A stretch of 64,000 bases of DNA, taken from the IMG/VR virus record IMGVR_UViG_3300017917_000199, positions 20,962 through 84,961 of that record. One strand, written 5' to 3'. The notes under the pieces were generated by a model. It was not told the origin of the DNA. It was given only the letters and a program-made list of their open reading frames with translations, and made no database searches. The first letter of the stretch is position 1; each line of letters opens with the position of its first letter. The stretch is from a virus. A program made the position numbers and the translations under genes. Shown here in pieces: positions 3,221 through 64,000 of the stretch.

Positions 3221-5422
3221 TTAGAACTTCCCATCGGGTCTCGCTGTTGGGGGTATACCTGCACGACTTACTTTGCTGTAAAACGCTTTTGCGTTCTTTT
3301 TGATACTGTCGGGCTTAACATCTACTGTTAATGCTGTTTTAAAACGAGGATCGTTTTTCTCTTTTTCGCTAGGGATGTATCCTGAGGCTTCTGCTACATT
3401 CTGCTTTCTAGTCAATTTAAACACAACACCTTCATCACGGTCAATAGCTTGTGCATTATACCCCCATTGTTGAGCATAGCGTTTTACTAGTCTATCATAT
3501 AGTTTAGCTCTACTCATTTCATTCTGTCCAGGCTCAACTTCTTTACTAGCAGAGAATGATATATTTGTCGGTTGTTCCATTTTCAAGAATTCTTGTATGG
3601 CGTGTAGTACAGTAGCAAATACTCTTTGAGCGTCACCTTCACCTGTTAATTCTAGATTGTTATTTCTCCAAAATGTAATAACAACATCGTCAGGTGACTC
3701 ATGGTCAAACATGATGGTCAATGGGGTACCATCTGGGAGTTTTGTCATTGCATCATAATCACCATACTCACTCTTTTCCCATTTAATGGGGTAGGGTTGG
3801 TCGAATGCTTCTGCTATTGAACCACGAAATTGATTGTCTTTTAAACCACCATATGGATTTACTGGAGGTGTTTTTTCACTAGCAAATCGTAATGTATCAT
3901 CTTCTTCAATAGAAGCATTTTTCTCAAAACCCTTCCACATTGCTTTACCTGCAGGAGTTTGTGTGCCGCTAGGTCTAATATCATTGCCCATTGATTTGAC
4001 CCACTTATAGACTTCTGTTGCGATACCCTTCTTTTGATATTCACTCCAAACACTGACATTGCCAGCTAATACATATGGGTCTTTTTTCTTGGCAAATTTG
4101 CTGAATATTTTATACTTAGGTTCAGGTTCATAGTCATGCACAACGAATCTAAAATATCCTATCTTTTTACCGTCAGGTGTAATTACATCAATTCTAAACT
4201 GTTGAGGATATTCATCCGTAACGTTTTGAGCTACTAACTTTAATGGACCTACATCTTTAATGTCAATTTCTTTTTCAGCGTGAAAGTCTTTTTTAACTAC
4301 TTCTGGATTAATCTTTTCATTTACATTATATGTAGGATCAACCTTCTGACGCTTCATGCCCTTAGGTTGATTCTTATCTAATGGATCAATATCAGTTGTT
4401 GTAAGACCCGTTTTTTCTAAATCTTGTATGTACTCGTGTTCTTCTGGTTCGCTGCCAAATGACATTATAGTGCTTGGTGGACCTTGACCAAAGTCATGGT
4501 GACCTAATCCTTTTAAGTTGCTGATATGTTGTCCTAGTTTATACCAGTCATAAACATCACTTACATCTACCTTTACTGTACCAGCTGGCATAGTAGGTTT
4601 GAATTCTGGTCCAGGTGGAGGACCGTTTGGATCATAATCTTCATCGGCAATCTTAGAAAACTCTTTAGATAGTTTGTCTTTAAGTTTATTTTGTTCTGGC
4701 TTCTTATACATAGTTTCAATAGTTAAAATTTCACTATGTAACTTGTCTCTAAGTGCATAAAGTTTTTGAATATATCCTTGACTACGCAATGCTTTAAATG
4801 CTAAATTCTCGGGACCAAACTCGCCTCCCTTATCTAACCCTGCTTGTCTATATTGTTTTATTTTCTTTAGTACTTTATTAACTTTATCTATGTCACTGGA
4901 TTTTAATGCTCGTTTTATGATATCTAATAATTTATCGTATTTTGCTTTTGAGGCGGTTTGGTCAAAATTTGCTCTACGCTTAGTGGGGATTCTAAGCCAT
5001 TTATCATTCAATATACTGTACTCACCTAGACTTACGACTGGTTCTCTGGCGTCTTGTACGTATAATTCTACTGGAACCCCGTGGATAGTAATATCGTGAC
5101 TGTCGTTATAAATTGATTTTTTAGCTTGGAATAATTCCTTATAGACTTCATTTTGTGGCAAGTTGCCTAAGTCTACAAGAATGTGTAAATCTAAATCTGA
5201 GTGCTTTGTGTAGCTATATGCAGCGTTTGAACCTGATACTGTGATATCCTTAACATCTAAATCGTGGATGCCTAGTTCTTCTATAAAATCCTGTGCTATC
5301 AATAATAGTTGTTTTTTAACTTTAGGACGCAATTTCTGCCCAGCCCATAGTTTAGGGTTGAGTTCATCGTGAAAAGTAACCGCATCTGAAAGTTTAAAAC
5401 TGTGTAGTTCGTTTAATTGCAT
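3221..5422 (-). CDS. Multidomain protein: Pol-beta-type nucleotidyltransferase + GNAT-like domain + uncharacterised modules
   Basis: GSNAAYSYTKHSDLDLHIL...VELYVQ (GS/DxD/acidic); VWSEYQKKGIATEVY...QTPAGKAMW (GNAT). Confidence 0.7.
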   Translation of the reverse strand: MQLNELHSFKLSDAVTFHDELNPKLWAGQKLRPKVKKQLLLIAQDFIEELGIHDLDVKDITVSGSNAAYSYTKHSDLDLHILVDLGNLPQNEVYKELFQAKKSIYNDSHDITIHGVPVELYVQDAREPVVSLGEYSILNDKWLRIPTKRRANFDQTASKAKYDKLLDIIKRALKSSDIDKVNKVLKKIKQYRQAGLDKGGEFGPENLAFKALRSQGYIQKLYALRDKLHSEILTIETMYKKPEQNKLKDKLSKEFSKIADEDYDPNGPPPGPEFKPTMPAGTVKVDVSDVYDWYKLGQHISNLKGLGHHDFGQGPPSTIMSFGSEPEEHEYIQDLEKTGLTTTDIDPLDKNQPKGMKRQKVDPTYNVNEKINPEVVKKDFHAEKEIDIKDVGPLKLVAQNVTDEYPQQFRIDVITPDGKKIGYFRFVVHDYEPEPKYKIFSKFAKKKDPYVLAGNVSVWSEYQKKGIATEVYKWVKSMGNDIRPSGTQTPAGKAMWKGFEKNASIEEDDTLRFASEKTPPVNPYGGLKDNQFRGSIAEAFDQPYPIKWEKSEYGDYDAMTKLPDGTPLTIMFDHESPDDVVITFWRNNNLELTGEGDAQRVFATVLHAIQEFLKMEQPTNISFSASKEVEPGQNEMSRAKLYDRLVKRYAQQWGYNAQAIDRDEGVVFKLTRKQNVAEASGYIPSEKEKNDPRFKTALTVDVKPDSIKKNAKAFYSKVSRAGIPPTARPDGKF

Positions 5423-17779: not shown

Positions 17780-18038
17780 GACCAGCTGTAATAACAGCTT
17801 CTTTTTCTAGTTGTCCTATTAGATTAGGATAGATTTGTTTATAATATGTATCCATCTTCTCCCAATCAGTTTCAACCGTCTTACCCTCAATTACACACTT
17901 TTGTACCTGCTTGGTGGCATAATCCAGGATTACGTTGCAAGTTTGTAAGTCTGCCGGTTTTATCTTCTTCGACACTGCAACCTGTTCGTCAATTTGTCCC
18001 CCAGGTTTTCTCAAATAAGTAATCAATAAATATCTCAA
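17766..18038 (-). CDS. Hypothetical protein
   Basis: 90-aa ORF coupled to the clamp loader gene. Confidence 0.55.
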   Translation of the reverse strand: MRYLLITYLRKPGGQIDEQVAVSKKIKPADLQTCNVILDYATKQVQKCVIEGKTVETDWEKMDTYYKQIYPNLIGQLEKEAVITAGQKGA

Positions 18039-18958
18039 GTTGTTAACTCCACTAATGTTGCTGCCATTGCTATTTCGGGAATACCGACTAATGGCAAATT
18101 TGCTAGACCATTACGAATAATAATGATACTTGCGTCTTTACGTTCTTGGTCTTTGCCCCACAAATCCAAGTTATCGTACATCCATTTATACGTATCTTCA
18201 ACTCTTGTCGGGTAAAGTGCGATATATTGCATTAACTGCTGTCTTCCCTCAAGAACTTTTCCAGATTTAAACAGTTGTGTCGCTTCCAACAACAAGTCAT
18301 TTTCACTTGATCCATGTGTTTCAGGCGCTAGTAGTTTACCTGTGCTACTATTAACTTGCAGTTGATTTAGACACTTACGCAGATCAGGATATGTTGCACG
18401 AACATACGTATCTAATGTGTCTGGATCAGCTTCAATATTTTCATTAGAAAGTACAGTAGCCGCACGAATCAAAAAGTCGTTGATATCAGGCTTAGCAATA
18501 TGAAACTCATGGCATCGTGACTTTAACGCAGGGATAACTTTGTATCCATAGTTACATGTCAGAATGTATCTACAAGTTTCAGCATACGCTTCCATATCAT
18601 TACGCAATGCAGCCTGTGCGTCACGTGACAGATAATCAGCTTCGTCTAATAGAACAATTTTAAACTTACCAAATGGCATTGTTTCAACAAAGCCATTGAT
18701 TTTTGTTCTTACGTTTTCGACCGAGTTTTCTCTGGATGCATTAATCTCAAGTACATCATAATCATCCACTTCAAGTTCTTTGATAAGAACTTTTGCAAGT
18801 GTAGTTTTACCTGTGCCTGGATCACCACTCAATAACAAGTGAGGGATAGATCCTTCTTTGATCCAGTTTTCAACTTGCTGCTTTTGCCTTTCGTCAACAA
18901 ACACATAATCAGAAACTGTGTTTGGACGATACTTTTCTACCCACAATTGATTTTTCAT
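18035..18958 (-). CDS. Clamp loader subunit (RFC small/T4 gp44-like)
   Basis: LWVEKYRP, PHLLLSGDPGTGKTT, EINAS, LLDEAD, SRC. Confidence 0.92.
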   Translation of the reverse strand: MKNQLWVEKYRPNTVSDYVFVDERQKQQVENWIKEGSIPHLLLSGDPGTGKTTLAKVLIKELEVDDYDVLEINASRENSVENVRTKINGFVETMPFGKFKIVLLDEADYLSRDAQAALRNDMEAYAETCRYILTCNYGYKVIPALKSRCHEFHIAKPDINDFLIRAATVLSNENIEADPDTLDTYVRATYPDLRKCLNQLQVNSSTGKLLAPETHGSSENDLLLEATQLFKSGKVLEGRQQLMQYIALYPTRVEDTYKWMYDNLDLWGKDQERKDASIIIIRNGLANLPLVGIPEIAMAATLVELTT

Positions 18959-19641
18959 TCTTTTTTATCACCAAATAGTTGTAACAATGACAAGAATATA
19001 TTAATGAAATCTAGGTACAATGTCAATGCCCCGGTGACTTCTGCAATCCCAGTATCAGTATCATACATGACCATTTCACGAATTTTTTGGGTATCATACG
19101 CTGTCAATCCCAAAAAGATAATGATAGCTAGTGCAGAAATTACCATTTGAAATACAGTGCTACCTACAAAAATGTTAATGATGCTGGCAATAATGATTGC
19201 AATTAAGCCAACAAACATGAACTTGCCTATGCTGTCTAGGTTGTTCTTAGTAAAGTACCCATATAGACTCATGGTTCCAAATAGTACTGCTGCTCCCATG
19301 AATGCTGTAAAAATGCTACCCATTTGGTATACAGCAAAGATAGTAGCAAAACTTAGTCCCATCAATGCTGCAAATCCATGTAGCATCAATAGTGCGATAG
19401 ATTTAGGTGGACCAGCATTTAATGCAATGGTAATTGCAAAAATAGCTGCTAGTGGAGCAAAGATTACAACCCACTTTAATACTCCTGTAAAAAAGAATTC
19501 TAGTAGTTGTGGAGTAGTACCAACAAAATAACTCACTAGCATACTAATAATAACAGCGACACTCATGTGGCTATAGACATTTGCCATAGCAGTGTTGATT
19601 TGTGCTGCTGAACGATAGGTTAAAGTATCTGAATAGCTCAT
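18955..19641 (-). CDS. Bax inhibitor-1/YccA family membrane protein
   Basis: About 7 TM segments; AYDTQKI and GALTLYLDFINIF motifs. Confidence 0.9.
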   Translation of the reverse strand: MSYSDTLTYRSAAQINTAMANVYSHMSVAVIISMLVSYFVGTTPQLLEFFFTGVLKWVVIFAPLAAIFAITIALNAGPPKSIALLMLHGFAALMGLSFATIFAVYQMGSIFTAFMGAAVLFGTMSLYGYFTKNNLDSIGKFMFVGLIAIIIASIINIFVGSTVFQMVISALAIIIFLGLTAYDTQKIREMVMYDTDTGIAEVTGALTLYLDFINIFLSLLQLFGDKKE

Positions 19642-19952
19642 CTTTTTAATGCCTCCATAGTAATAATTTGTGAAATATGTTTACCTAATTCTTCTTCGTC
19701 GTTGACAACATAAAGACTAGTCTCTACCCTATCATTTCTATTGTCATACTGTCTGAATTCAATAGCCCAACCACCGTTAGCTTTGAACATTTTGAACTGA
19801 ATTGGCTCTGTATTTAAGTCATCACTTTCTCTAACTAATTGCGCTCGGCGAACCTTAGAAGTACCAATAGTGTTGATAGCTCTAGGTTCATCATCTATAC
19901 GTTGAGCATTGTTAATTTTGTCGCCCAACCATTTGTAAAACCATTGTATCAT
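19638..19952 (-). CDS. Hypothetical protein
   Basis: 104-aa ORF in operon. Confidence 0.55.
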   Translation of the reverse strand: MIQWFYKWLGDKINNAQRIDDEPRAINTIGTSKVRRAQLVRESDDLNTEPIQFKMFKANGGWAIEFRQYDNRNDRVETSLYVVNDEEELGKHISQIITMEALKR

Positions 19953-19954
19953 TT

Positions 19955-20602
19955 TTACCCCAAATCTACTTTACCGTTACACTTTGGACAAATATATGCA
20001 CCTTTGTCATCATCATTAGGATTATCTACTAAATCCATAATGTCCTCAGTTGAGAAATCACATTCAGTGCATCTAAATTGTGCGTACTCAGGTTCAGGTG
20101 CATTACTAAAGGGCCACTTTGCTCCGGGCTCTAATTTAATTGACTCAGTAACTTCTTCATCTTCTTTGTCAGAGCCAACAATTTCACCTGTTGGATTACC
20201 GTCATCGTCAAGTCGTTCAATGATTAAATCACAATCGATAATCATTTCACATTCATCTTGCACCCAACCATGTTCTTCAAGGTCTAGCCAAGAATTACCC
20301 TCGTCAAAGAATTCTTGTAGCCATTCTTCGGTTTCCGCATCACAATCATCGTAATCGATTTCTTCCCAGCAACCGTCGTTAGTTTCAACTAGTTCTGTTT
20401 CATAGTCGCAGTTGTAGATATCTACCCCTGCTTCAATGTTTGGTGGATTGTCATCATCTGTATACACAGTGAATTCACCCCATCGCCAACCAGTCTCAAC
20501 CATAAGACGATTATCACCTTTGATGAAATAGTTACGTTCGATAACTGATTTCTTCCACTCGGGCTTGACAGACCATAATGCCATTTTAGTATACCTTATC
20601 AC
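19955..20602 (-). CDS. Acidic hypothetical protein with C-terminal Zn ribbon
   Basis: CTEC...CPKC. Start may be the downstream MALWSV. Confidence 0.55.
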   Translation of the reverse strand: MIRYTKMALWSVKPEWKKSVIERNYFIKGDNRLMVETGWRWGEFTVYTDDDNPPNIEAGVDIYNCDYETELVETNDGCWEEIDYDDCDAETEEWLQEFFDEGNSWLDLEEHGWVQDECEMIIDCDLIIERLDDDGNPTGEIVGSDKEDEEVTESIKLEPGAKWPFSNAPEPEYAQFRCTECDFSTEDIMDLVDNPNDDDKGAYICPKCNGKVDLG

Positions 20603-20963
20603 TCATTGTTTCATCTTCCATCGGCTCATCCGATACAAGCAGTATATCATTAGGATCTACTTTTCGCAACGTGACTTTACCCGAAGGAGTTTCAACAGTG
20701 ATACCGCGTGTCCAACGACCGTGACTAATAAGAATGTACTTACCAATTTCTAGTTGTGGGTCTTTAACATCAGGACCTAGTCCATAAATCTTTGCCCAAC
20801 GTGGACGAATACCAGATGACTTTTTATCATCGTCTAACAGAACAATGCCACCTTTACTGATACGTTCGTCAAACTTCATGTCCGAAACAATAATGTTATC
20901 ATGCATGAAGCGTAGTTTGTCTACTTTTGTAGGACTAAATGCTGGTTTGCTATACTCGCTCAT
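20586..20963 (-). CDS. groES: GroES-like co-chaperonin
   Basis: DNIIV...ISKGGIVL...GLGP...DILLV. Confidence 0.75.
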   Translation of the reverse strand: MSEYSKPAFSPTKVDKLRFMHDNIIVSDMKFDERISKGGIVLLDDDKKSSGIRPRWAKIYGLGPDVKDPQLEIGKYILISHGRWTRGITVETPSGKVTLRKVDPNDILLVSDEPMEDETMSDKVY

Positions 20964-21301
20964 TTCTTTCCTTCTTTTGCTTTAATTGCCTCAATCTCGT
21001 CATCAAGCTCTGTGTCTAATTCAAACTCTTTTTCAGCTTCGGTCAATTCAGCTAAATCTATTTTTGGTTTTGCTGGCGCAACAGGTTTACTTTTAACTGG
21101 TTGTGCTGAACGGTTACCTACAGTCTTTGAATATGAATCGTTGACTTTGGTAGTCACGGGTTTTACAATTCTGCCCTGATCGTTAATCGTATCACCCCTA
21201 GCGTTAACACTCATGTTGCCAACTGCTCGGGTTTTCTCATTTCTTGCGGCTAGTGCGGACATGTCTACGACTTTGCCCATTGCTGTTCTATAGTTAGCCA
21301 T
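20960..21301 (-). CDS. Hypothetical protein
   Basis: 113 aa; SD AGGAG; AVGNMSVNARGD motif. Confidence 0.6.
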   Translation of the reverse strand: MANYRTAMGKVVDMSALAARNEKTRAVGNMSVNARGDTINDQGRIVKPVTTKVNDSYSKTVGNRSAQPVKSKPVAPAKPKIDLAELTEAEKEFELDTELDDEIEAIKAKEGKK

Positions 21302-21311
21302 TTTAGTTCTC

Positions 21312-21821
21312 CTATTTTAAAAACTCATCTATTGGTAAGTCGTAGTATAAGCTATCAATTTTGTGAACTCCTATTAAGAATAACACATAACTCGCTACAC
21401 TACTACCCCTACCCACACCCCATACGATACCATTTTTACGCATGGTATCAACTAAGTATTTAAGATATTTTAACAAAACAAACATGTTTCTGTCTTGAAA
21501 TTTCAATAATTCGTCACCCGCACGTTGTAATTGTTCCTCAGTCGTGCATTGATCCAAGACAAATTTAGCAATGTCAAAATTTTTATATTCTTCTGGAAGA
21601 TACCAATTGCTTTGATTTAATTCATCAAACTTTTCTAGTGAGAGTTTCGGATCAACATATTCTTTTATGTTGTTGATATTGCTTGCTTCCAAAAAAACAT
21701 AGTCTAAATTTATGTTATTTTCAACCAAAACTTGTTTAATTATGCGTGTAGGATCTTGTAAAAACAAACCGCACAAATCAGTTTCATTTAAAATAGGTTG
21801 ACCATATAAATCTATCTTCAT
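21312..21821 (-). CDS. dnaE: DNA polymerase III alpha-like, N-terminal palm fragment (split gene part 1)
   Basis: R...EL......F...LKYLVD.MRKNGIVWGVGRGSSVASYVLFLIGVHKID....L..DEFLK corresponds to the DnaE GPGRGS...FERFL segment. Confidence 0.8.
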   Translation of the reverse strand: MKIDLYGQPILNETDLCGLFLQDPTRIIKQVLVENNINLDYVFLEASNINNIKEYVDPKLSLEKFDELNQSNWYLPEEYKNFDIAKFVLDQCTTEEQLQRAGDELLKFQDRNMFVLLKYLKYLVDTMRKNGIVWGVGRGSSVASYVLFLIGVHKIDSLYYDLPIDEFLK

Positions 21822-21827
21822 AGGTTT

Positions 21828-21856
21828 ATAATACACGACTTACCTGTTAAAGTCAA
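21828..21856 (-). promoter_or_regulatory. Sigma70 promoter, leaderless geometry
   Basis: TTGACT-17-TATTAT-6 nt-ATG. Confidence 0.75.
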
Positions 21857-58788: not shown

Positions 58789-60249
58789 TTATTTCTTTAG
58801 AGAATTCAATAAGGACTTTAATTTAGTACTTCCAACGTCAGCTACAACCTTCTTTTCTAGTGGAGAAAAGTCAAATTTATGATTAGGATCATATGTTGAG
58901 GGGGCAGGCTGTTCTGTTACTGTTGATTGTGTTTTCACTTGATTCAGTATGTCGTTGGGACTCGGTGCAGGTTTATATTTTGCTTGCTGGTCAGCATATC
59001 CATCAGGATCTTCGTCAGTGATACGCATAGTTTCAATGTTATACTCTAAGTCAATTTTTTGACCAACACCCGTAGAACTACGTGATTTCATACACTGAAT
59101 TTGATACTTGCCGCGCTCACGCATACTACGGCTTGTGAAGATACCAAACACGTTATCTGCTGTGTTAATCTTACTAATACCACCAGCAATGTGACTATGG
59201 TCAAATTCGATTTCTTCAACAGCAGATCGGTTCAACTGTGACGCTGTAACTAATAGAATACCTAATTCCTTTGCCAAGTTACGCAATTCTTCTGAAACAT
59301 ACTTGTCTTTGATGAACTGGTCGTTAGGATTAACTTTGACAGATACTGGCATAACAAGATCCAAGTAGTCAACCATAACAAAGTCAACTTTGATACCTGT
59401 TTGAATCTGTACTTCTTTCAGATATGCACGAATATCATTAACGTTGCTCTGTGCGGGCATTGCTTTAACACGATATTGACCAGACTTTTTACCGACCATT
59501 TTAACTTTAAGTTCAGTCGTATCCATGTCTCTACGGATATCCTTCGTACTCATACTTGTTAACATAGCATCAGTACGCAATGATGTTAATTCTTCTGAAA
59601 GTTCAAGTGAGATATAAACACCGCTCAAACCCATTTGCAACCAGTTTAGTGCAATGTTCATCATAACCAATGACTTACCTGATCCTGAACCACCTGCAAA
59701 GATATTCAGTTCACCACGACTGAAACCACCATACAACAGTTTATCCATCTGTGGCCAGCCAGTAGATACTTGACCACCTGCGTTAAAGTATTTGTTTAAA
59801 CGAGTTTTTGGGTCAGCAAAGTAATCTGTACCCATGTCTTTTTGTAGACTGATTTGTACCGCATCTTTGATTAATTTTTCAACTGGGCCATAATCACCCT
59901 TCTCAAGCATATCAGCTGCCTTGAGAATCGCACGTTCTAGTGCTTGTCGCTTAGTAAATTTTTCAAATTCTTCTAGGAATTTTTCTGTGTGCCCTTCTGT
60001 TACATTTTCAATGGGTTCTAATTTAATGCCTGTAGATGCTTCAATAAACTCAGGTTCAGGGATTGTGCTAAACTTGTCTGCACTGTCTTTAAATAATTCT
60101 ACAACCGGTCTTAATGTTTTATCAAAGTTTTCTGCATCGATAATGTTAGCCACACGTGTATATAACTGTGCGTCTGTCAGCATCATTTTCAAAAACCATT
60201 TTTGTAATTCTACTGTATATTCTATTTTAAATTCCGATTTGTTTGCCAA
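58789..60249 (-). CDS. Replicative DnaB-like helicase (T4 gp41-like)
   Basis: STGWPQMD, GGSGSGKS, VDYLDL, TASQLNR, KSR. Confidence 0.92.
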   Translation of the reverse strand: MANKSEFKIEYTVELQKWFLKMMLTDAQLYTRVANIIDAENFDKTLRPVVELFKDSADKFSTIPEPEFIEASTGIKLEPIENVTEGHTEKFLEEFEKFTKRQALERAILKAADMLEKGDYGPVEKLIKDAVQISLQKDMGTDYFADPKTRLNKYFNAGGQVSTGWPQMDKLLYGGFSRGELNIFAGGSGSGKSLVMMNIALNWLQMGLSGVYISLELSEELTSLRTDAMLTSMSTKDIRRDMDTTELKVKMVGKKSGQYRVKAMPAQSNVNDIRAYLKEVQIQTGIKVDFVMVDYLDLVMPVSVKVNPNDQFIKDKYVSEELRNLAKELGILLVTASQLNRSAVEEIEFDHSHIAGGISKINTADNVFGIFTSRSMRERGKYQIQCMKSRSSTGVGQKIDLEYNIETMRITDEDPDGYADQQAKYKPAPSPNDILNQVKTQSTVTEQPAPSTYDPNHKFDFSPLEKKVVADVGSTKLKSLLNSLKK

Positions 60250-61204
60250 TTTTCTTCCTCTGCAATTCTATTTTAATTTTACTATTTGTTGCACTCTGTA
60301 GTATACTCAATAGGGTCGGTAGTTTGCCATACTTGACCACTGCATCGTTTGTATCTTTAACATCAACATCCCAATTAGGTAAGCTGACTTGATAACCTAA
60401 CTCTAATGCTTTATCACATAATTTCAATCCAGTCTTGTCTCTATCCGGAACCACAATTATAGTTTTGTTTAGTGTGCTTAATAGTTGTGCCTGTTCACTG
60501 CTAATGTCATCGTGCATAATTGCTACACCGTCAATAGCAAGTGCGTCGAATATTCCTTCGGTTACAATACACACAGTCCACTCTGGTTTTTGCATATCAA
60601 TGTTAAATACATATCCAGGCTGTTGTTCATTTAAATATTTCGGAGTTCTATCGTCTAAGAATCTACTTGTATGACCTACAATTTTATTTTTGTAGGTGTA
60701 GGGTATAACGACTCTGTTGCCCATACGACCAGGTTCGTCTGGTGTGATTAAGAAGGGATATTCATCGATACTTATACCCCTTCGTTGCACATAATCAGCG
60801 AATACTTTGTGTTGTGGATTATTTTTGTCAAGCAGTTGACCTTCGGGTAGTGTATGGTCTTTGAATTTTATCTTGACTTTCTTTTGTGGCTTAGTGAAGT
60901 CTAGTAAATCTTTGTGCTGTAAACTTTCTAAGCTCCAGCGTTGTATTTCAATGTCATCTATTCCACACCATTTCAATAGATTTCTTGTTTTTGCTCCAAT
61001 TGGTCTACCCAGAACAAAGTTACACTTAAAACTACAGTTAAAGCAATGATATGACCAATTATTTTGTCCATCAAATTTGATACCACCTCGCATCCTACGA
61101 TCGGCTTTGTGTCCATGATGGCTGCAACAAATAGCGTTGAAACTAGTCCAACCGCTACTTGTAGTCTTTTTCTTGCCTGGAATGATAGATAGGATATCAA
61201 ACAT
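60227..61204 (-). CDS. DNA primase (Zn finger + TOPRIM)
   Basis: CC..H...HCFNC; VTEGIFDA; VVPDRD; KDTND. Confidence 0.85.
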   Translation of the reverse strand: MFDILSIIPGKKKTTSSGWTSFNAICCSHHGHKADRRMRGGIKFDGQNNWSYHCFNCSFKCNFVLGRPIGAKTRNLLKWCGIDDIEIQRWSLESLQHKDLLDFTKPQKKVKIKFKDHTLPEGQLLDKNNPQHKVFADYVQRRGISIDEYPFLITPDEPGRMGNRVVIPYTYKNKIVGHTSRFLDDRTPKYLNEQQPGYVFNIDMQKPEWTVCIVTEGIFDALAIDGVAIMHDDISSEQAQLLSTLNKTIIVVPDRDKTGLKLCDKALELGYQVSLPNWDVDVKDTNDAVVKYGKLPTLLSILQSATNSKIKIELQRKKIGKQIGI

Positions 61205-61252: not shown

Positions 61253-62026
61253 TTATCTTGTTAGTATATTGGTTACTGCACCCGTATTACTTACAAATTG
61301 CATTCTGACATAAGGGTGATATCCACGGATAGTGTAACCTTTTGTGTCAGTAACATTAGCTAGACCTGTGTCAGCGGTAATAGGATACCAATCACCGTCA
61401 GGAATAGTAGAACCTTCGATAACGACATTACCATAATACTGTTCATATTTTGTTTGGAACGTCATAATTGGATTGTCGTTTGTAGAGATTACGCTAGTGT
61501 AATATGTGTTTGCGTTACTGTTTGCGTTACTATATTGATTTAAGTTAGGGAAAGGTTGTCCTGTTGGAATAGAAACCTCGTAGCTAGGAACAAAGCTAGG
61601 TAATATGCTGTTAACAATGTTCATTATGCCACGACCACCGGCATTTTGGTCAACAAATACTGGATAGTCAAATGATCCTACAGGTATTTCTAATGTATAG
61701 TAGCATTTCTGTGCGTCAATATCTTCAATTTCCGCAGCGTTAGTAATCAATGCTGCTATCCCGTTTAGTGGTAACTGTAGTGTTAATGCCTTCTGTAAGA
61801 GGACCTGATTACCTGCATTATTTAAAATTCTACAAGTAATTTCTTTACCTGTAATGTCTACTGGCTTTTGTTCTTGGTTCAAGAACTGGAATTGAATCTG
61901 GTTATCTACACCTTTGTGTAGAGTTAAGGGTTTGGCATAAACTGGCATATATCTCCTTGGTGATGTGCCATCGAGTAGCACAACAATATTGCGCTGAAAA
62001 AAGTAAAAAACGGCTGTAGAGTACAT
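61253..62026 (-). CDS. Virion-type protein (BppU-like N-terminal region possible)
   Basis: KGVDNQIQFQFLNQEQKPVDITG; CTAAATA upstream. Confidence 0.5.
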   Translation of the reverse strand: MYSTAVFYFFQRNIVVLLDGTSPRRYMPVYAKPLTLHKGVDNQIQFQFLNQEQKPVDITGKEITCRILNNAGNQVLLQKALTLQLPLNGIAALITNAAEIEDIDAQKCYYTLEIPVGSFDYPVFVDQNAGGRGIMNIVNSILPSFVPSYEVSIPTGQPFPNLNQYSNANSNANTYYTSVISTNDNPIMTFQTKYEQYYGNVVIEGSTIPDGDWYPITADTGLANVTDTKGYTIRGYHPYVRMQFVSNTGAVTNILTR

Positions 62027-62057: not shown

Positions 62058-62477
62058 TTGGTTTGCCCGATGCTAAATAAAATGTATTTTAACATAATGG
62101 TTCACAACGATTTTTTCAAGAAACTAAGCGAGGCTCACCCATTCATAACAGTGTGTTCCTACGCCAACCAAGATTACGTAGGAATAGTGCAAAACCGTGA
62201 TGACATGGTTACCACTATATATGATTACGGGGCCATTGTCGATCCAGTAATCAAAGAAAAATTCTTAGAATTAGGTGATGTTTGGTGGTGGGAAAGTAAT
62301 AGATTAATACCAATCAATCTATTTCTAAAAGATGAATGGACTATTTTTAAGCCGTATCTACGCACTTTTAACAATAAAAGTCTGTCAATAATACACGGTC
62401 CTGTTTGCAGTATGACAGAATTAAACAAAAGACGTTCAAAACGCCGTAGTATAACGTTAGTTAAGCGACTCAGTTAA
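62058..62477 (+). CDS. Hypothetical protein
   Basis: WWWESNRLIPINLFL motif; true start probably 62082 or 62097. Confidence 0.55.
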   Translation: MVCPMLNKMYFNIMVHNDFFKKLSEAHPFITVCSYANQDYVGIVQNRDDMVTTIYDYGAIVDPVIKEKFLELGDVWWWESNRLIPINLFLKDEWTIFKPYLRTFNNKSLSIIHGPVCSMTELNKRRSKRRSITLVKRLS

Positions 62478-63032
62478 TAAGTTCATATGAACTACAACCA
62501 AATGTGCATATGCAATTGCGTGTGCTTTTTTGAACACATATCCGTCAGTACCCTTATCCCAGACAGTCTTTGCGACTTCTTTCCAAGTTTCCCCAATTAA
62601 ATGCTTTTTGCCAGGACGAATCACAGCTAGAAACATAGCTAATCTTGGGATACTGTCTACTGGTTCGGGCATCTTTTGTAGATTATAAAACTGATTGTTC
62701 AAGTGTATGAGTTTTTCGACAAAAGTGGGGTCTTTCAATTTTGTCCAATCTGGTTCTTTCATTAACGTAACTAAATGTTCTTCGCTTTTGACAGACTCAT
62801 ACACATGAACGTTCAGTAAATCTAACTTAAAATATCCTCGTTTTTCAGCATCAACATAATCAATCGCAGCCATATCATTGATGGGATCATATGGAATATC
62901 TGTGACATACACTCCAGTATTATGCTTACGCATGGGTTTTACATTACGCATAGCCGCTGAGGTATGAGGTATTAGTTTTAATAACTCCTCTCTTGATCCA
63001 AAGTCAATGTCAATGTCTGCATCTAATTTCAT
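62457..63032 (-). CDS. dnaE: DNA polymerase III alpha-like, catalytic palm/fingers fragment (split gene part 2)
   Basis: DADIDIDF, KHNTGVYV, GYFKLDLL, LAVIRPG, YVFKKAHAIAYA. Confidence 0.82.
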   Translation of the reverse strand: MKLDADIDIDFGSREELLKLIPHTSAAMRNVKPMRKHNTGVYVTDIPYDPINDMAAIDYVDAEKRGYFKLDLLNVHVYESVKSEEHLVTLMKEPDWTKLKDPTFVEKLIHLNNQFYNLQKMPEPVDSIPRLAMFLAVIRPGKKHLIGETWKEVAKTVWDKGTDGYVFKKAHAIAYAHLVVVHMNLLTESLN

Positions 63033-63586
63033 TTTTGTGCCAATCCTGCTTCCATCAATTTCTTGTACGCTTGTTGCACAACAATAGCCTGTCTTTCTGC
63101 ATCTTCTACTGCTTTGTGACTAGTCACATGCCCACCGTCTTTAAGTTTGACTCCTGCGATTTCCCATAATGTTCTTGTATCACGCATTGACCAGAAGGGC
63201 CAGGGAATAGGATTAGGCTTATCGCTTGTTTGTCGCCATGCATGTTCCATTACGACCAAATCAAATGGCGCACCATTACTCCATACAGCACGACGGTTCC
63301 AACAAAACTTATAAAGGGTCTCCATGCAATCAGCAAATGGGACTCGTCCCCTGTCTCCCAATGCTTCTTCAAGTGCTTCAGGGCTCTGTTCAGACCACCA
63401 TCGTAATGTATCATCATTGATACTCCTATTATATATTTCAGTTTGATCCTCAACTGTGGGTCGTAATTCTAATCGTTCTACTACACCGTTACCTCTAGGA
63501 TCAAAACGAACGGCACCGATAGTTAGTATAACACAATCAGGTGTTGTGTTCAAACTTTCAATGTCAATCATAATATCCGCCGCCAT
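63029..63586 (-). CDS. DEDDh 3'-5' exonuclease
   Basis: IMIDIESL, WSNGAPFD, RDTRT, HKAVEDA. Confidence 0.85.
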   Translation of the reverse strand: MAADIMIDIESLNTTPDCVILTIGAVRFDPRGNGVVERLELRPTVEDQTEIYNRSINDDTLRWWSEQSPEALEEALGDRGRVPFADCMETLYKFCWNRRAVWSNGAPFDLVVMEHAWRQTSDKPNPIPWPFWSMRDTRTLWEIAGVKLKDGGHVTSHKAVEDAERQAIVVQQAYKKLMEAGLAQK

Positions 63587-63588
63587 TT

Positions 63589-64000
63589 TTATTCCTTATT
63601 TTTACAATTATCAAAGTGATATCGTTTCATTTGATTTCTACCACCTATTTTATCACAATGTGGACATGTTACCTTCGGCATGTTTTTGTTAGGATTCATA
63701 TCACCTTGAAAATTATGTGTTCCTGCGTCTACTCTCTCGTTCGCAAGTTTTTTATTATGAACTTTACCTAACTCTCCTGCCCAGGGGTGTATACCTAATT
63801 TTACTAAATTATTGTTTCTTTGTATAGCATTACGGCTACCTTGCTCACCTTGAAAATTATGGGTTCCGTCTTTTAACCGCTGAGCCTGGACCTGTTTACT
63901 CAATTCTGCTGAAAAATTATGGGTGCCCTCAGCAATTCTTTTGGCTGCTACTGCTTTGCTAAGTTTACTCTGTAATTTTTTGGCTACATCAACTGGAACA
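63589..64000 (-). mobile_element. Partial homing endonuclease-like gene (5' end outside window)
   Basis: Frame is open to the window edge; GTHNF repeats; C-terminal CPHC...RYHFDNC like 46562-47170. Confidence 0.6.

Follow-up and report, generated by a model that had tools for sequence, protein, structure and literature searches.

The question raised by this locus is why an uncultured virus should encode, in a reading frame of 191 amino acids (aa), the catalytic motifs of the bacterial replicase, the alpha subunit of DNA polymerase III (Pol III alpha or DnaE). The frame lies in a 64,000-nucleotide (nt) stretch of DNA, hereinafter the window, which comprises bases 20962-84961 of an 84,961-base-pair (bp) IMG/VR viral record (IMGVR_UViG_3300017917_000199; CheckV completeness 24%). 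An initial annotation, made from the letters alone, had read the frame as the catalytic half of an intein-free, two-gene minimal family C polymerase, with its partner encoded far away in the same window and an overlapping exonuclease serving as a separate proofreader. We consider it very probable that the gene encodes the C-terminal half (C-half) of the split minimal Pol III alpha described by Iyer and colleagues in 2021, and that the window belongs to an uncultured phage of their group 2.2 (RaK2/PA5oct/Atu_ph07-like, T4-related). The two genes are:

62457..63032, minus strand: predicted C-terminal half of a split minimal Pol III alpha (ATG start, 191 aa; phrog_11778)
21312..21821, minus strand: predicted N-terminal half (N-half) of the same enzyme (169 aa from ATG; GVGRGSS loop; PF07733, phrog_11127)

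The two genes and their likeness to Pol III alpha

The translation of the C-half presents DIDIDF (residues 6-11), KHNTGV (36-41), KLD (69-71), RPG (139-141) and YVFKKAHAIAY (165-175), the key residues being D6, D8, D10, H37, G40, K69, D71, R139, P140, K168 and H171. It matches the PHROGs family phrog_11778, annotated as 'DNA polymerase', with E 1.7e-59. A phmmer search over 1.84 billion cluster representatives recovered 388 proteins at E <= 1e-3, and from the best 150 of these we assembled an alignment (A1) of the window protein and 77 near-full-length homologues, leaving out fragments and one long protein. Against the PDB, the A1 profile found 11 sequences at E <= 10, of which nine are Pol III alpha (E 1e-5 to 1.4e-4) and the remaining two rows MoaE (E 0.55). 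In the alignment with the Escherichia coli chain, profile positions 5-21 pair with residues 402-418 (weakly, at -3.8 bits, with the register of D-x-D-x-D ambiguous by two residues), 54-140 with 538-641, such that K-x-D falls on K553-F-D555, and 151-180 with 739-769. We take D401, D403 and D555 to be the catalytic residues of the E. coli enzyme; the profile match places a palm with three catalytic carboxylates, in the DnaE order, within the C-half. Between the paired segments, the thumb-containing chain residues 419-537 (~120) are replaced by ~32 profile positions, and the finger residues 642-738 (~100) by ~10. Hence, the thumb and much of the fingers have been cut down. Translation and colinear profile match together confirm that this short frame holds the DnaE motifs in DnaE order, as had been claimed, and the near-deletion of the thumb between DIDF and KH is equally borne out.

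The fold points the same way. An AlphaFold2 (AF2) model of the C-half built on A1, with a predicted local distance difference test score (pLDDT) of 95.8, aligns with Pol III alpha of Taq (3e0d_A, residues 459-837) over 186 of its 191 residues (VIA-align Z 9.6, root-mean-square deviation (rmsd) 3.5), and its residues 1-191 align with E. coli chain residues 397-780 (Z 8.2). The top 13 rows of the fold search are all C-family polymerases, with Z from 9.6 down to 6.2, and the next, unrelated, row stands at Z 2.6. The model stops at about residue 780 of the E. coli chain, so the protein does end before the clamp-binding, HhH and OB regions, as the initial annotation held. We also considered a clamp-type motif at the extreme C-terminus and dropped the idea, since the tails of the 78 representatives (4-30 residues) share no common motif.

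The N-half is homologous to the nucleoside triphosphate (NTP)-binding subdomain of Pol III alpha, as seen with both PF07733 and hhalign. Its single sequence matches positions 17-94 of the 260 of PF07733 (DNA_pol3_alpha) with E 4.7e-9, at 36.7 bits against a cut-off of 23.9, and phrog_11127 with E 2.4e-40. In the hhalign comparison of its profile with a 540-aa DnaE-like protein holding PHP and PF07733 domains, residues 97-169 align with 315-387 (probability 92%); against the PDB the profile yields only a weak match (E 0.045). Gene callers use the ATG start (169 aa); a GTG at 21836 would give 174 aa. The N-terminal part of the protein is poorly conserved in comparison with cultured phages, where tblastn matches begin at query residue 36-74.

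The two genes lie on the same strand, 40.6 kilobases (kb) apart in the window, and their products, of 169 and 191 aa, add up to the 360 aa given by the initial annotation. Placed end to end, N-half and C-half follow a single uninterrupted stretch of DnaE in order: the former stops right after ...DEFLK, the latter starts with M-K-L-D-A-D-I-D, and relative to the DnaE sequence the two frames abut with about nine residues missing, in agreement with the earlier claim that one begins almost where the other ends. The split falls between the G-x-G-R-G-S nucleotide-binding loop, which is in the N-half, and the D-x-D strand, which is in the C-half. Because this break lies within one Pol-beta-like palm, neither product has a complete nucleotidyltransferase core. 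No Hint/intein family is detected by Pfam in either half at E <= 1, which, along with the abutting frames, upholds the description of the pair as intein-free.

Do these halves belong together? A tblastn search of 50,697 phage records gives 96 with the C-half and 95 with the N-half, spread over the genera in nearly the same numbers; the Klebsiella records include 11 with the C-half against 10 with the N-half, and some of them are fragments of 86-110 kb. The C-half is present in all five long IMG/VR contigs chosen for the N-half, and the N-half in all five chosen for the C-half. The distance between the two is 35-44 kb in eight of ten long related contigs; in one fragment among the ten it is 128 kb, and in one 92%-complete record it is 282 kb on the linear sequence, or ~51 kb if the ends are joined. 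The position of the break is as constant as the pairing: the N-half ends at the same alignment position (...[ED]F[LI][KR]) in 80 of 80 IMG/VR homologues, 77 of them stopping exactly there and three one residue later, with all three stop codons in use.

The catalytic residues have been equally well kept. Across the 78 representatives of A1, which are 32-59% identical to the window protein, D6, D8, K69, D71 and P140 are invariant, and D10, H37, G40, R139, K142, K168 and H171 are retained in at least 90%; in the closer relatives twelve key residues of the C-half are retained in 81 of 81 sequences, as is GVGRGSS in 74 of 74 N-halves. In 47 pairs of C-halves at 80-99.5% amino-acid identity, the ratio of non-synonymous to synonymous substitution rates (dN/dS, Nei-Gojobori) never exceeds 0.21 and has its median at 0.074; for 31 such pairs of N-halves the median is 0.084 and the highest value 0.15. 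Thus, the two halves always occur together and are under strong purifying selection. Co-occurrence, invariance of the catalytic aspartates (D6, D8 and D71 in both the distant and the close set) and purifying selection had all been proposed as checks on the pairing, and each of them came out in its favor.

A further line of evidence comes from rare natural proteins in which both halves form a single chain. These fall into three clusters of 375-376 aa, with five distinct sequences (P0291, P0391, P0392, P0405 and P0406) from ~10 contigs, the longest of 33,277 bp; all are from outside the window, on short contigs of ENA and Logan assemblies. In P0291 (375 aa), residues 73-180 are 37% identical to the window N-half (E 2e-20) and residues 190-370 match the C-half; a search with it led to the two further clusters, of 376 aa, which are 81% and 78% identical to it, and its nearest C-half relatives (51-59%) are separate proteins of 206-222 aa. 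The junction, ...EFIK-D-x-x-E-G-x-Y-N-I-A-D-x-D-x-D..., is conserved in three aligned representatives, one per cluster, and PF07733 runs continuously across it (residues 97-207 with 12-121 of 260, E 4.8e-16). Nature has occasionally joined the two halves in one chain at exactly this split point. The fused form has no relative in IMG/VR and none in GTDB genomes; in JGI metagenomes the fused query recovered three loci, none of them fused (L167 matches residues 189-372 only, L168 is an ordinary DnaE of 1160 aa and L169 resembles L168 by its row).

An AF2 model of the fused chain (pLDDT 87.6; predicted template modelling score 0.85) was built on an alignment, A6, from a set with 10 close C-halves, larger joint sets having been misaligned (MAFFT laid 33 of 33 N-halves on the C part). 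The top 19 Foldseek matches of this model are all C-family polymerases. In VIA it reaches Z 21.7 with DnaE1 of Mycobacterium tuberculosis (5lew; rmsd 4.3, 342 of 375 residues aligned), 20.3 with the Taq enzyme (3e0d_A), 18.0 with PolC (3f2b_A) and 15.9 with the E. coli enzyme, and the next, unrelated, chain has Z 3.6. Its alignment with DnaE starts at chain residue 10-23, which is inside the PHP domain, such that residues 1-96 of the N-half may be a PHP remnant. For that alignment only the end points are given, and hhalign aligned residues 97-169 only; we do not make this claim.

A known family and the polymerase beside it

The architecture outlined above has been described from sequence since 2021. 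Iyer, Anantharaman, Krishnan, Burroughs and Aravind (Viruses 2021;13:63; PMC7824862) present a 'minimal' two-gene Pol III alpha of the 'group 2.2' jumbo phages, comprising an N-terminal NTP-binding protein and a C-terminal Mg2+-/template-binding protein encoded by distant genes, in phages that have a family B polymerase (PolB) alongside and none of the other Pol III domains. They suggest that it cooperates with PolB in the synthesis of one strand, or acts in repair, and propose the minimal form as a model of the ancestral enzyme. The five features of that family for which we looked are all found here, namely the distant genes, the N unit, the C unit, homology to group 2.2 phages and a PolB without the other domains.

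On the side of homology, the records holding both halves in the tblastn search are jumbo phages of the RaK2, PA5oct, Atu_ph07, 121Q/PBECO4, CBB and GAP32 types. The C-half is 46% identical to its counterpart in Atu_ph07 (E 2e-47), 49% in PA5oct and 39.5% in RaK2, and the N-half 44.7% in PA5oct and 42.6% in Atu_ph07 (38-47% over RaK2, PA5oct and Atu_ph07). The family is very abundant in metagenomes, where searches with each half gave at least 8,000 candidates. In Atu_ph07 itself (NC_042013, locus L005, 4001-4576) we observed that the coding sequence annotated as 'DNA polymerase' starts at 4082, and the tblastn match starts at 4001 with query residue 1; hence, the deposited protein seems to lack ~27 N-terminal residues, including D-x-D.

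On the side of the second polymerase, the same contig has a PolB frame of 904 aa (PF00136, E 4.5e-36) just beyond the edge of the window, and PolB is present in three of three related long records, which answers in the affirmative a check that the initial annotation had proposed. PHP, DNA_pol3_finger (PF17657) and HHH_6 (PF14579) were found in none of four records at E <= 1, two of these records being at least 92% complete and that of the window 24%; PHP (PF02811) has no match in either half or in the four records. The full fingers and the clamp-binding/HhH and OB domains of a C-family polymerase are likewise missing from the phage enzyme.

The split minimal Pol III alpha is, accordingly, already known, and the novelty implied by the initial annotation does not hold: the window supplies one more, uncultured member, and for the window as such the finding adds no more than that. 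New in the present analysis are the rare proteins that unite both halves in one chain, the finding that the break is conserved exactly, the estimates of selection and a conserved convergent neighbor. Within the scope of our literature search, we found no description later than that of Iyer and colleagues. The portions consulted of PMC6892783, PMC12926913, PMC7412058, PMC11895373 and PMC7318152 contain no experiment on the family, and the Sharanji paper merely lists 'DNA polymerase III DnaE'.

The gene neighborhoods

The following features surround the two genes:

63029..63586, minus strand: DEDDh-type 3'-5' exonuclease, 185 aa (PF16473, Rv2179c-like, E 1.1e-31)
62058..62477, plus strand: convergent gene with no assigned function, 139 aa from TTG (phrog_11637, E 3.5e-31)
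62431..62445, minus strand: terminator-like hairpin and T-run, 12 nt after the stop of the C-half (consensus scan, weak)
61253..62026, minus strand: virion-structural-like protein, 257 aa (phrog_1084, phrog_14467)
60227..61204, minus strand: gp61-type DNA primase, 325 aa (Toprim_2, E 4.9e-5)
58789..60249, minus strand: gp41/DnaB-type replicative helicase, 486 aa (DnaB_C, E 1.9e-21)
18035-21301, minus strand: five genes downstream of the N-half, on its strand (Pfam)

The primase and helicase genes lie 1.2-3.7 kb downstream of the C-half, in keeping with the proximity noted at the outset, and the linkage extends well beyond this phage: among loci with enough flank, the primase is found in 57 of 64 and the helicase in 53 of 57. 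The primase shares 27-35% of its residues with those annotated in RaK2, PA5oct and Atu_ph07, and in these three phages the homologues of the 257-aa protein are annotated as structural. The block order of C-half, convergent gene, structural gene, primase and helicase is the same in all three. The most constant neighbor is the convergent gene, which is downstream of the C-half in 77 of 78 loci, as well as in PA5oct, Atu_ph07 and RaK2, and is present in 88 phage records of the same genera as the polymerase halves. Its homology begins near residue 20, and its 3' end overlaps that of the C-half by 21 nt. It could be a third component of the enzyme or just a core gene. The promoter/terminator scan carries no weight here, because it gave three terminator-like sites where shuffled sequence has 1.4 on average.

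Downstream of the N-half, the block comprises a 113-aa gene, a GroES-like gene (Cpn10 E 0.0041, a weak match below the cut-off), a 215-aa gene, a gene for a Bax1-I/YccA-like membrane protein (E 1.8e-53) and one for a gp44-type clamp-loader ATPase (AAA E 3.5e-15, Gp44_lid E 6.9e-5).

The exonuclease calls for separate consideration, as the initial annotation assigned it the role of proofreader. That would make for a three-part Pol III in which the exonuclease is a dedicated proofreading subunit, like epsilon with alpha. The stop of its gene does overlap the start of the C-half in the sequence ATGA, as had been noted and can be read directly; the overlap implies co-transcription of the two genes in this phage and possibly coupled translation. 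Of 73 related loci whose upstream sequence is long enough, 25 have the exonuclease immediately upstream of the C-half, and another 19 have it within 5 kb but separated by genes. However, it is absent within 5 kb in the other 29, mostly from more distant relatives, and at that position in PA5oct, Atu_ph07 and RaK2, which is not the consistent association of an alpha-epsilon pair. Moreover, its family is spread over 516 records of diverse phages, the majority small ones that lack this polymerase, and the best 30 of the 516 are 31.6-38.9% identical, come from records of 4-62 kb and include none that is RaK2-like. In E. coli, epsilon docks on the PHP domain, and that domain is missing here. Adjacency, absence in the three cultured relatives and wide spread together led us to reject the exonuclease as a specific or conserved partner; the assignment as proofreader does not stand, and we regard a three-part enzyme as improbable. 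The exonuclease is a lineage-specific neighbor, for which a functional link with the C-half within this lineage would be possible on the strength of the overlap.

The surroundings of the C-half also vary in other ways. Extra sequence of 0.2-1.5 kb separates it from the exonuclease in 19 of the 73 loci (L097-L131 and others), and extra sequence likewise separates it from the convergent gene in several loci (e.g., L098, L111 and L114). The site around the C-half looks like a place where small genes come and go. Upstream of the exonuclease, a frame on the minus strand (63589-63999), which runs off the window, has the motif G-T-H-N-F-x-[AG] at least three times and an end of the form C-x-x-C...C; it matches no Pfam family at E <= 0.01.

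Mechanism, alternatives and known counterparts

Briefly, we advance the following mechanism. The two halves would come together as a single Pol-beta-like palm whose active site is composite: the N-half would bind the incoming deoxynucleotide by its triphosphate, and the C-half would supply three carboxylates, D6/D8 and D71, to bind the two metals. The shortened fingers of the C-half (R139-P140, K168 and H171) probably contact the nucleotide and the template, and the reaction would be the usual two-metal nucleotidyl transfer to a primer-template. Lacking thumb, PHP, clamp-binding, HhH and OB regions, the pair alone is expected to have low processivity, unless another phage protein tethers it. 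With an intact PolB, a gp44-type clamp loader, a primase and a helicase in the same phage, the mini Pol III is most likely an auxiliary polymerase beside a family B replicase. Because it is constantly linked to the primase-helicase block, it would most likely serve the fork by filling gaps or by extending primers over short distances, the alternative being repair.

This proposal can be taken one step further, to a mini Pol III that is the dedicated primer-extension or hand-off polymerase of a family B replisome, working with the primase-helicase, and perhaps with the 139-aa protein, before PolB takes over. Its active site would form only when the two separately transcribed halves meet, and the outcome would be a division of labor like that of Pol alpha or of Bacillus subtilis DnaE, reinvented with ~360 residues. 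We offer this more specific version tentatively, as a doubtful though possible one.

Several points weigh against the identification and the proposed role. Taken as a single sequence, the C-half matches no Pfam family at E <= 1, PF17657 (finger) included, and phmmer gives no PDB match for it at E <= 10; hence, its homology to Pol III alpha is visible only with a profile, with PHROGs or by fold. The comparison with family models proposed in the initial annotation thus stood for the N-half, which matches PF07733, and gave no match for the single sequence of the C-half. In the N-half, residues ~1-96 (window 21534-21821) showed no relative outside the family, with hhalign aligning 97-169 only, and the matching part of the fused model, residues 1-90, has a pLDDT of 57-80. 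The likeness of that model to DnaE is partly by construction, because AlphaFold was trained on DnaE structures and A6 is imperfect, the last nine residues of its N-half rows being scattered onto the C part. The linkage to primase and helicase may equally be merely the conserved gene order of this phage group. Finally, our literature search found no enzymatic or genetic test of any family member.

How, then, do the other readings fare? The pair might be an active nucleotidyltransferase of the Pol-beta fold that is not a templated polymerase, such as a terminal transferase, a primer- or RNA-tailing enzyme or a maker of signaling nucleotides. All modules that hold the duplex or confer processivity are gone, and the Pol-beta fold serves many chemistries, with TENT, Cid1 and CD-NTase chains appearing at Z 2-3.6 in our fold searches. 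Yet the likeness to DnaE/PolC extends well past the palm into the fingers (E. coli chain residues 397-780 pair with residues 1-191 of the model), where the motifs R-P-G and K-x-x-H-x-x-x-Y are invariant or nearly so, and other nucleotidyltransferases reach at most Z 3.6 as against about 20 for C-family polymerases; we hold this reading to be quite improbable. That the mini Pol III is the main replicase of the phage might be argued from its derivation from a bacterial replicative polymerase and from the adjoining primase and helicase. It is highly improbable in view of the intact 904-aa PolB frame and gp44-type clamp loader on the same contig, the PolB in three of three relatives, and the enzyme's lack of a detectable clamp-binding region or a common motif in the C-terminal tails. 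The presence of PolB makes a specialized role more plausible than that of sole replicase, and on this count the initial annotation, which had preferred a specialized enzyme, is judged the more plausible view. Scarcely credible is a decaying relic or non-catalytic scaffold: about two thirds of DnaE have been lost and neither half has a strong single-sequence match, but both genes have a dN/dS of ~0.07-0.08, no metal ligand varies among the 81 close or the 78 distant relatives, and the end of the gene is exactly preserved in all 80 N-halves. Against the three-part enzyme also stand the other genes inserted between the exonuclease and the C-half in 19 loci.

The preferred reading thus remains that of the catalytic half of a two-gene minimal family C core, for which the motifs, the PF07733 match of the partner and the profile and fold matches speak; the original observation holds in all particulars that were testable. 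An active pair would be the smallest C-family DNA polymerase by a wide margin, its active site divided between two chains; it bears on the evolution of the bacterial replicase and on the reason for which T4-like giant phages retain a second polymerase. The natural single-chain forms would be a convenient starting point for biochemistry; were the hand-off version true, they would provide the smallest known C-family polymerase already joined in one chain.

It remains to place this enzyme among its known counterparts. With DnaE and PolC (2hnh, 5fku, 3e0d, 5lew and 3f2b) it has in common the Pol-beta-like palm, the G-x-G-R-G-S loop, the three carboxylates and a portion of the fingers bearing the R-P-G and K-S-H-type motifs, all in the same order. 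In contrast to their 1100-1400 aa, it has ~360 aa in two genes 40.6 kb apart, with no PHP domain detectable from sequence, almost no thumb, short fingers and no clamp-binding, HhH or OB regions. In cyanobacteria, DnaE is likewise encoded by two distant genes, whose products bear parts of an intein and are joined by splicing into a complete DnaE; those halves break at a different site, whereas the phage frames are too short for an intein and yield two chains or, rarely, a gene fusion. In B. subtilis, where DnaE works beside PolC, and in eukaryotes with Pol alpha, primers are first elongated by a second polymerase of lower processivity, and the main replicase then takes over; the likeness to these lies in a role suggested by the primase-helicase linkage only, and the main replicase of the phage would be of family B, not PolC. 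The closest counterparts are the phages of Iyer and colleagues (PMC7824862), with the same two small proteins from distant genes, a PolB and no other Pol III domains; nothing essential differs from their account, the portions consulted making no mention of the single-chain forms, the conserved convergent neighbor or the lineage-specific exonuclease.

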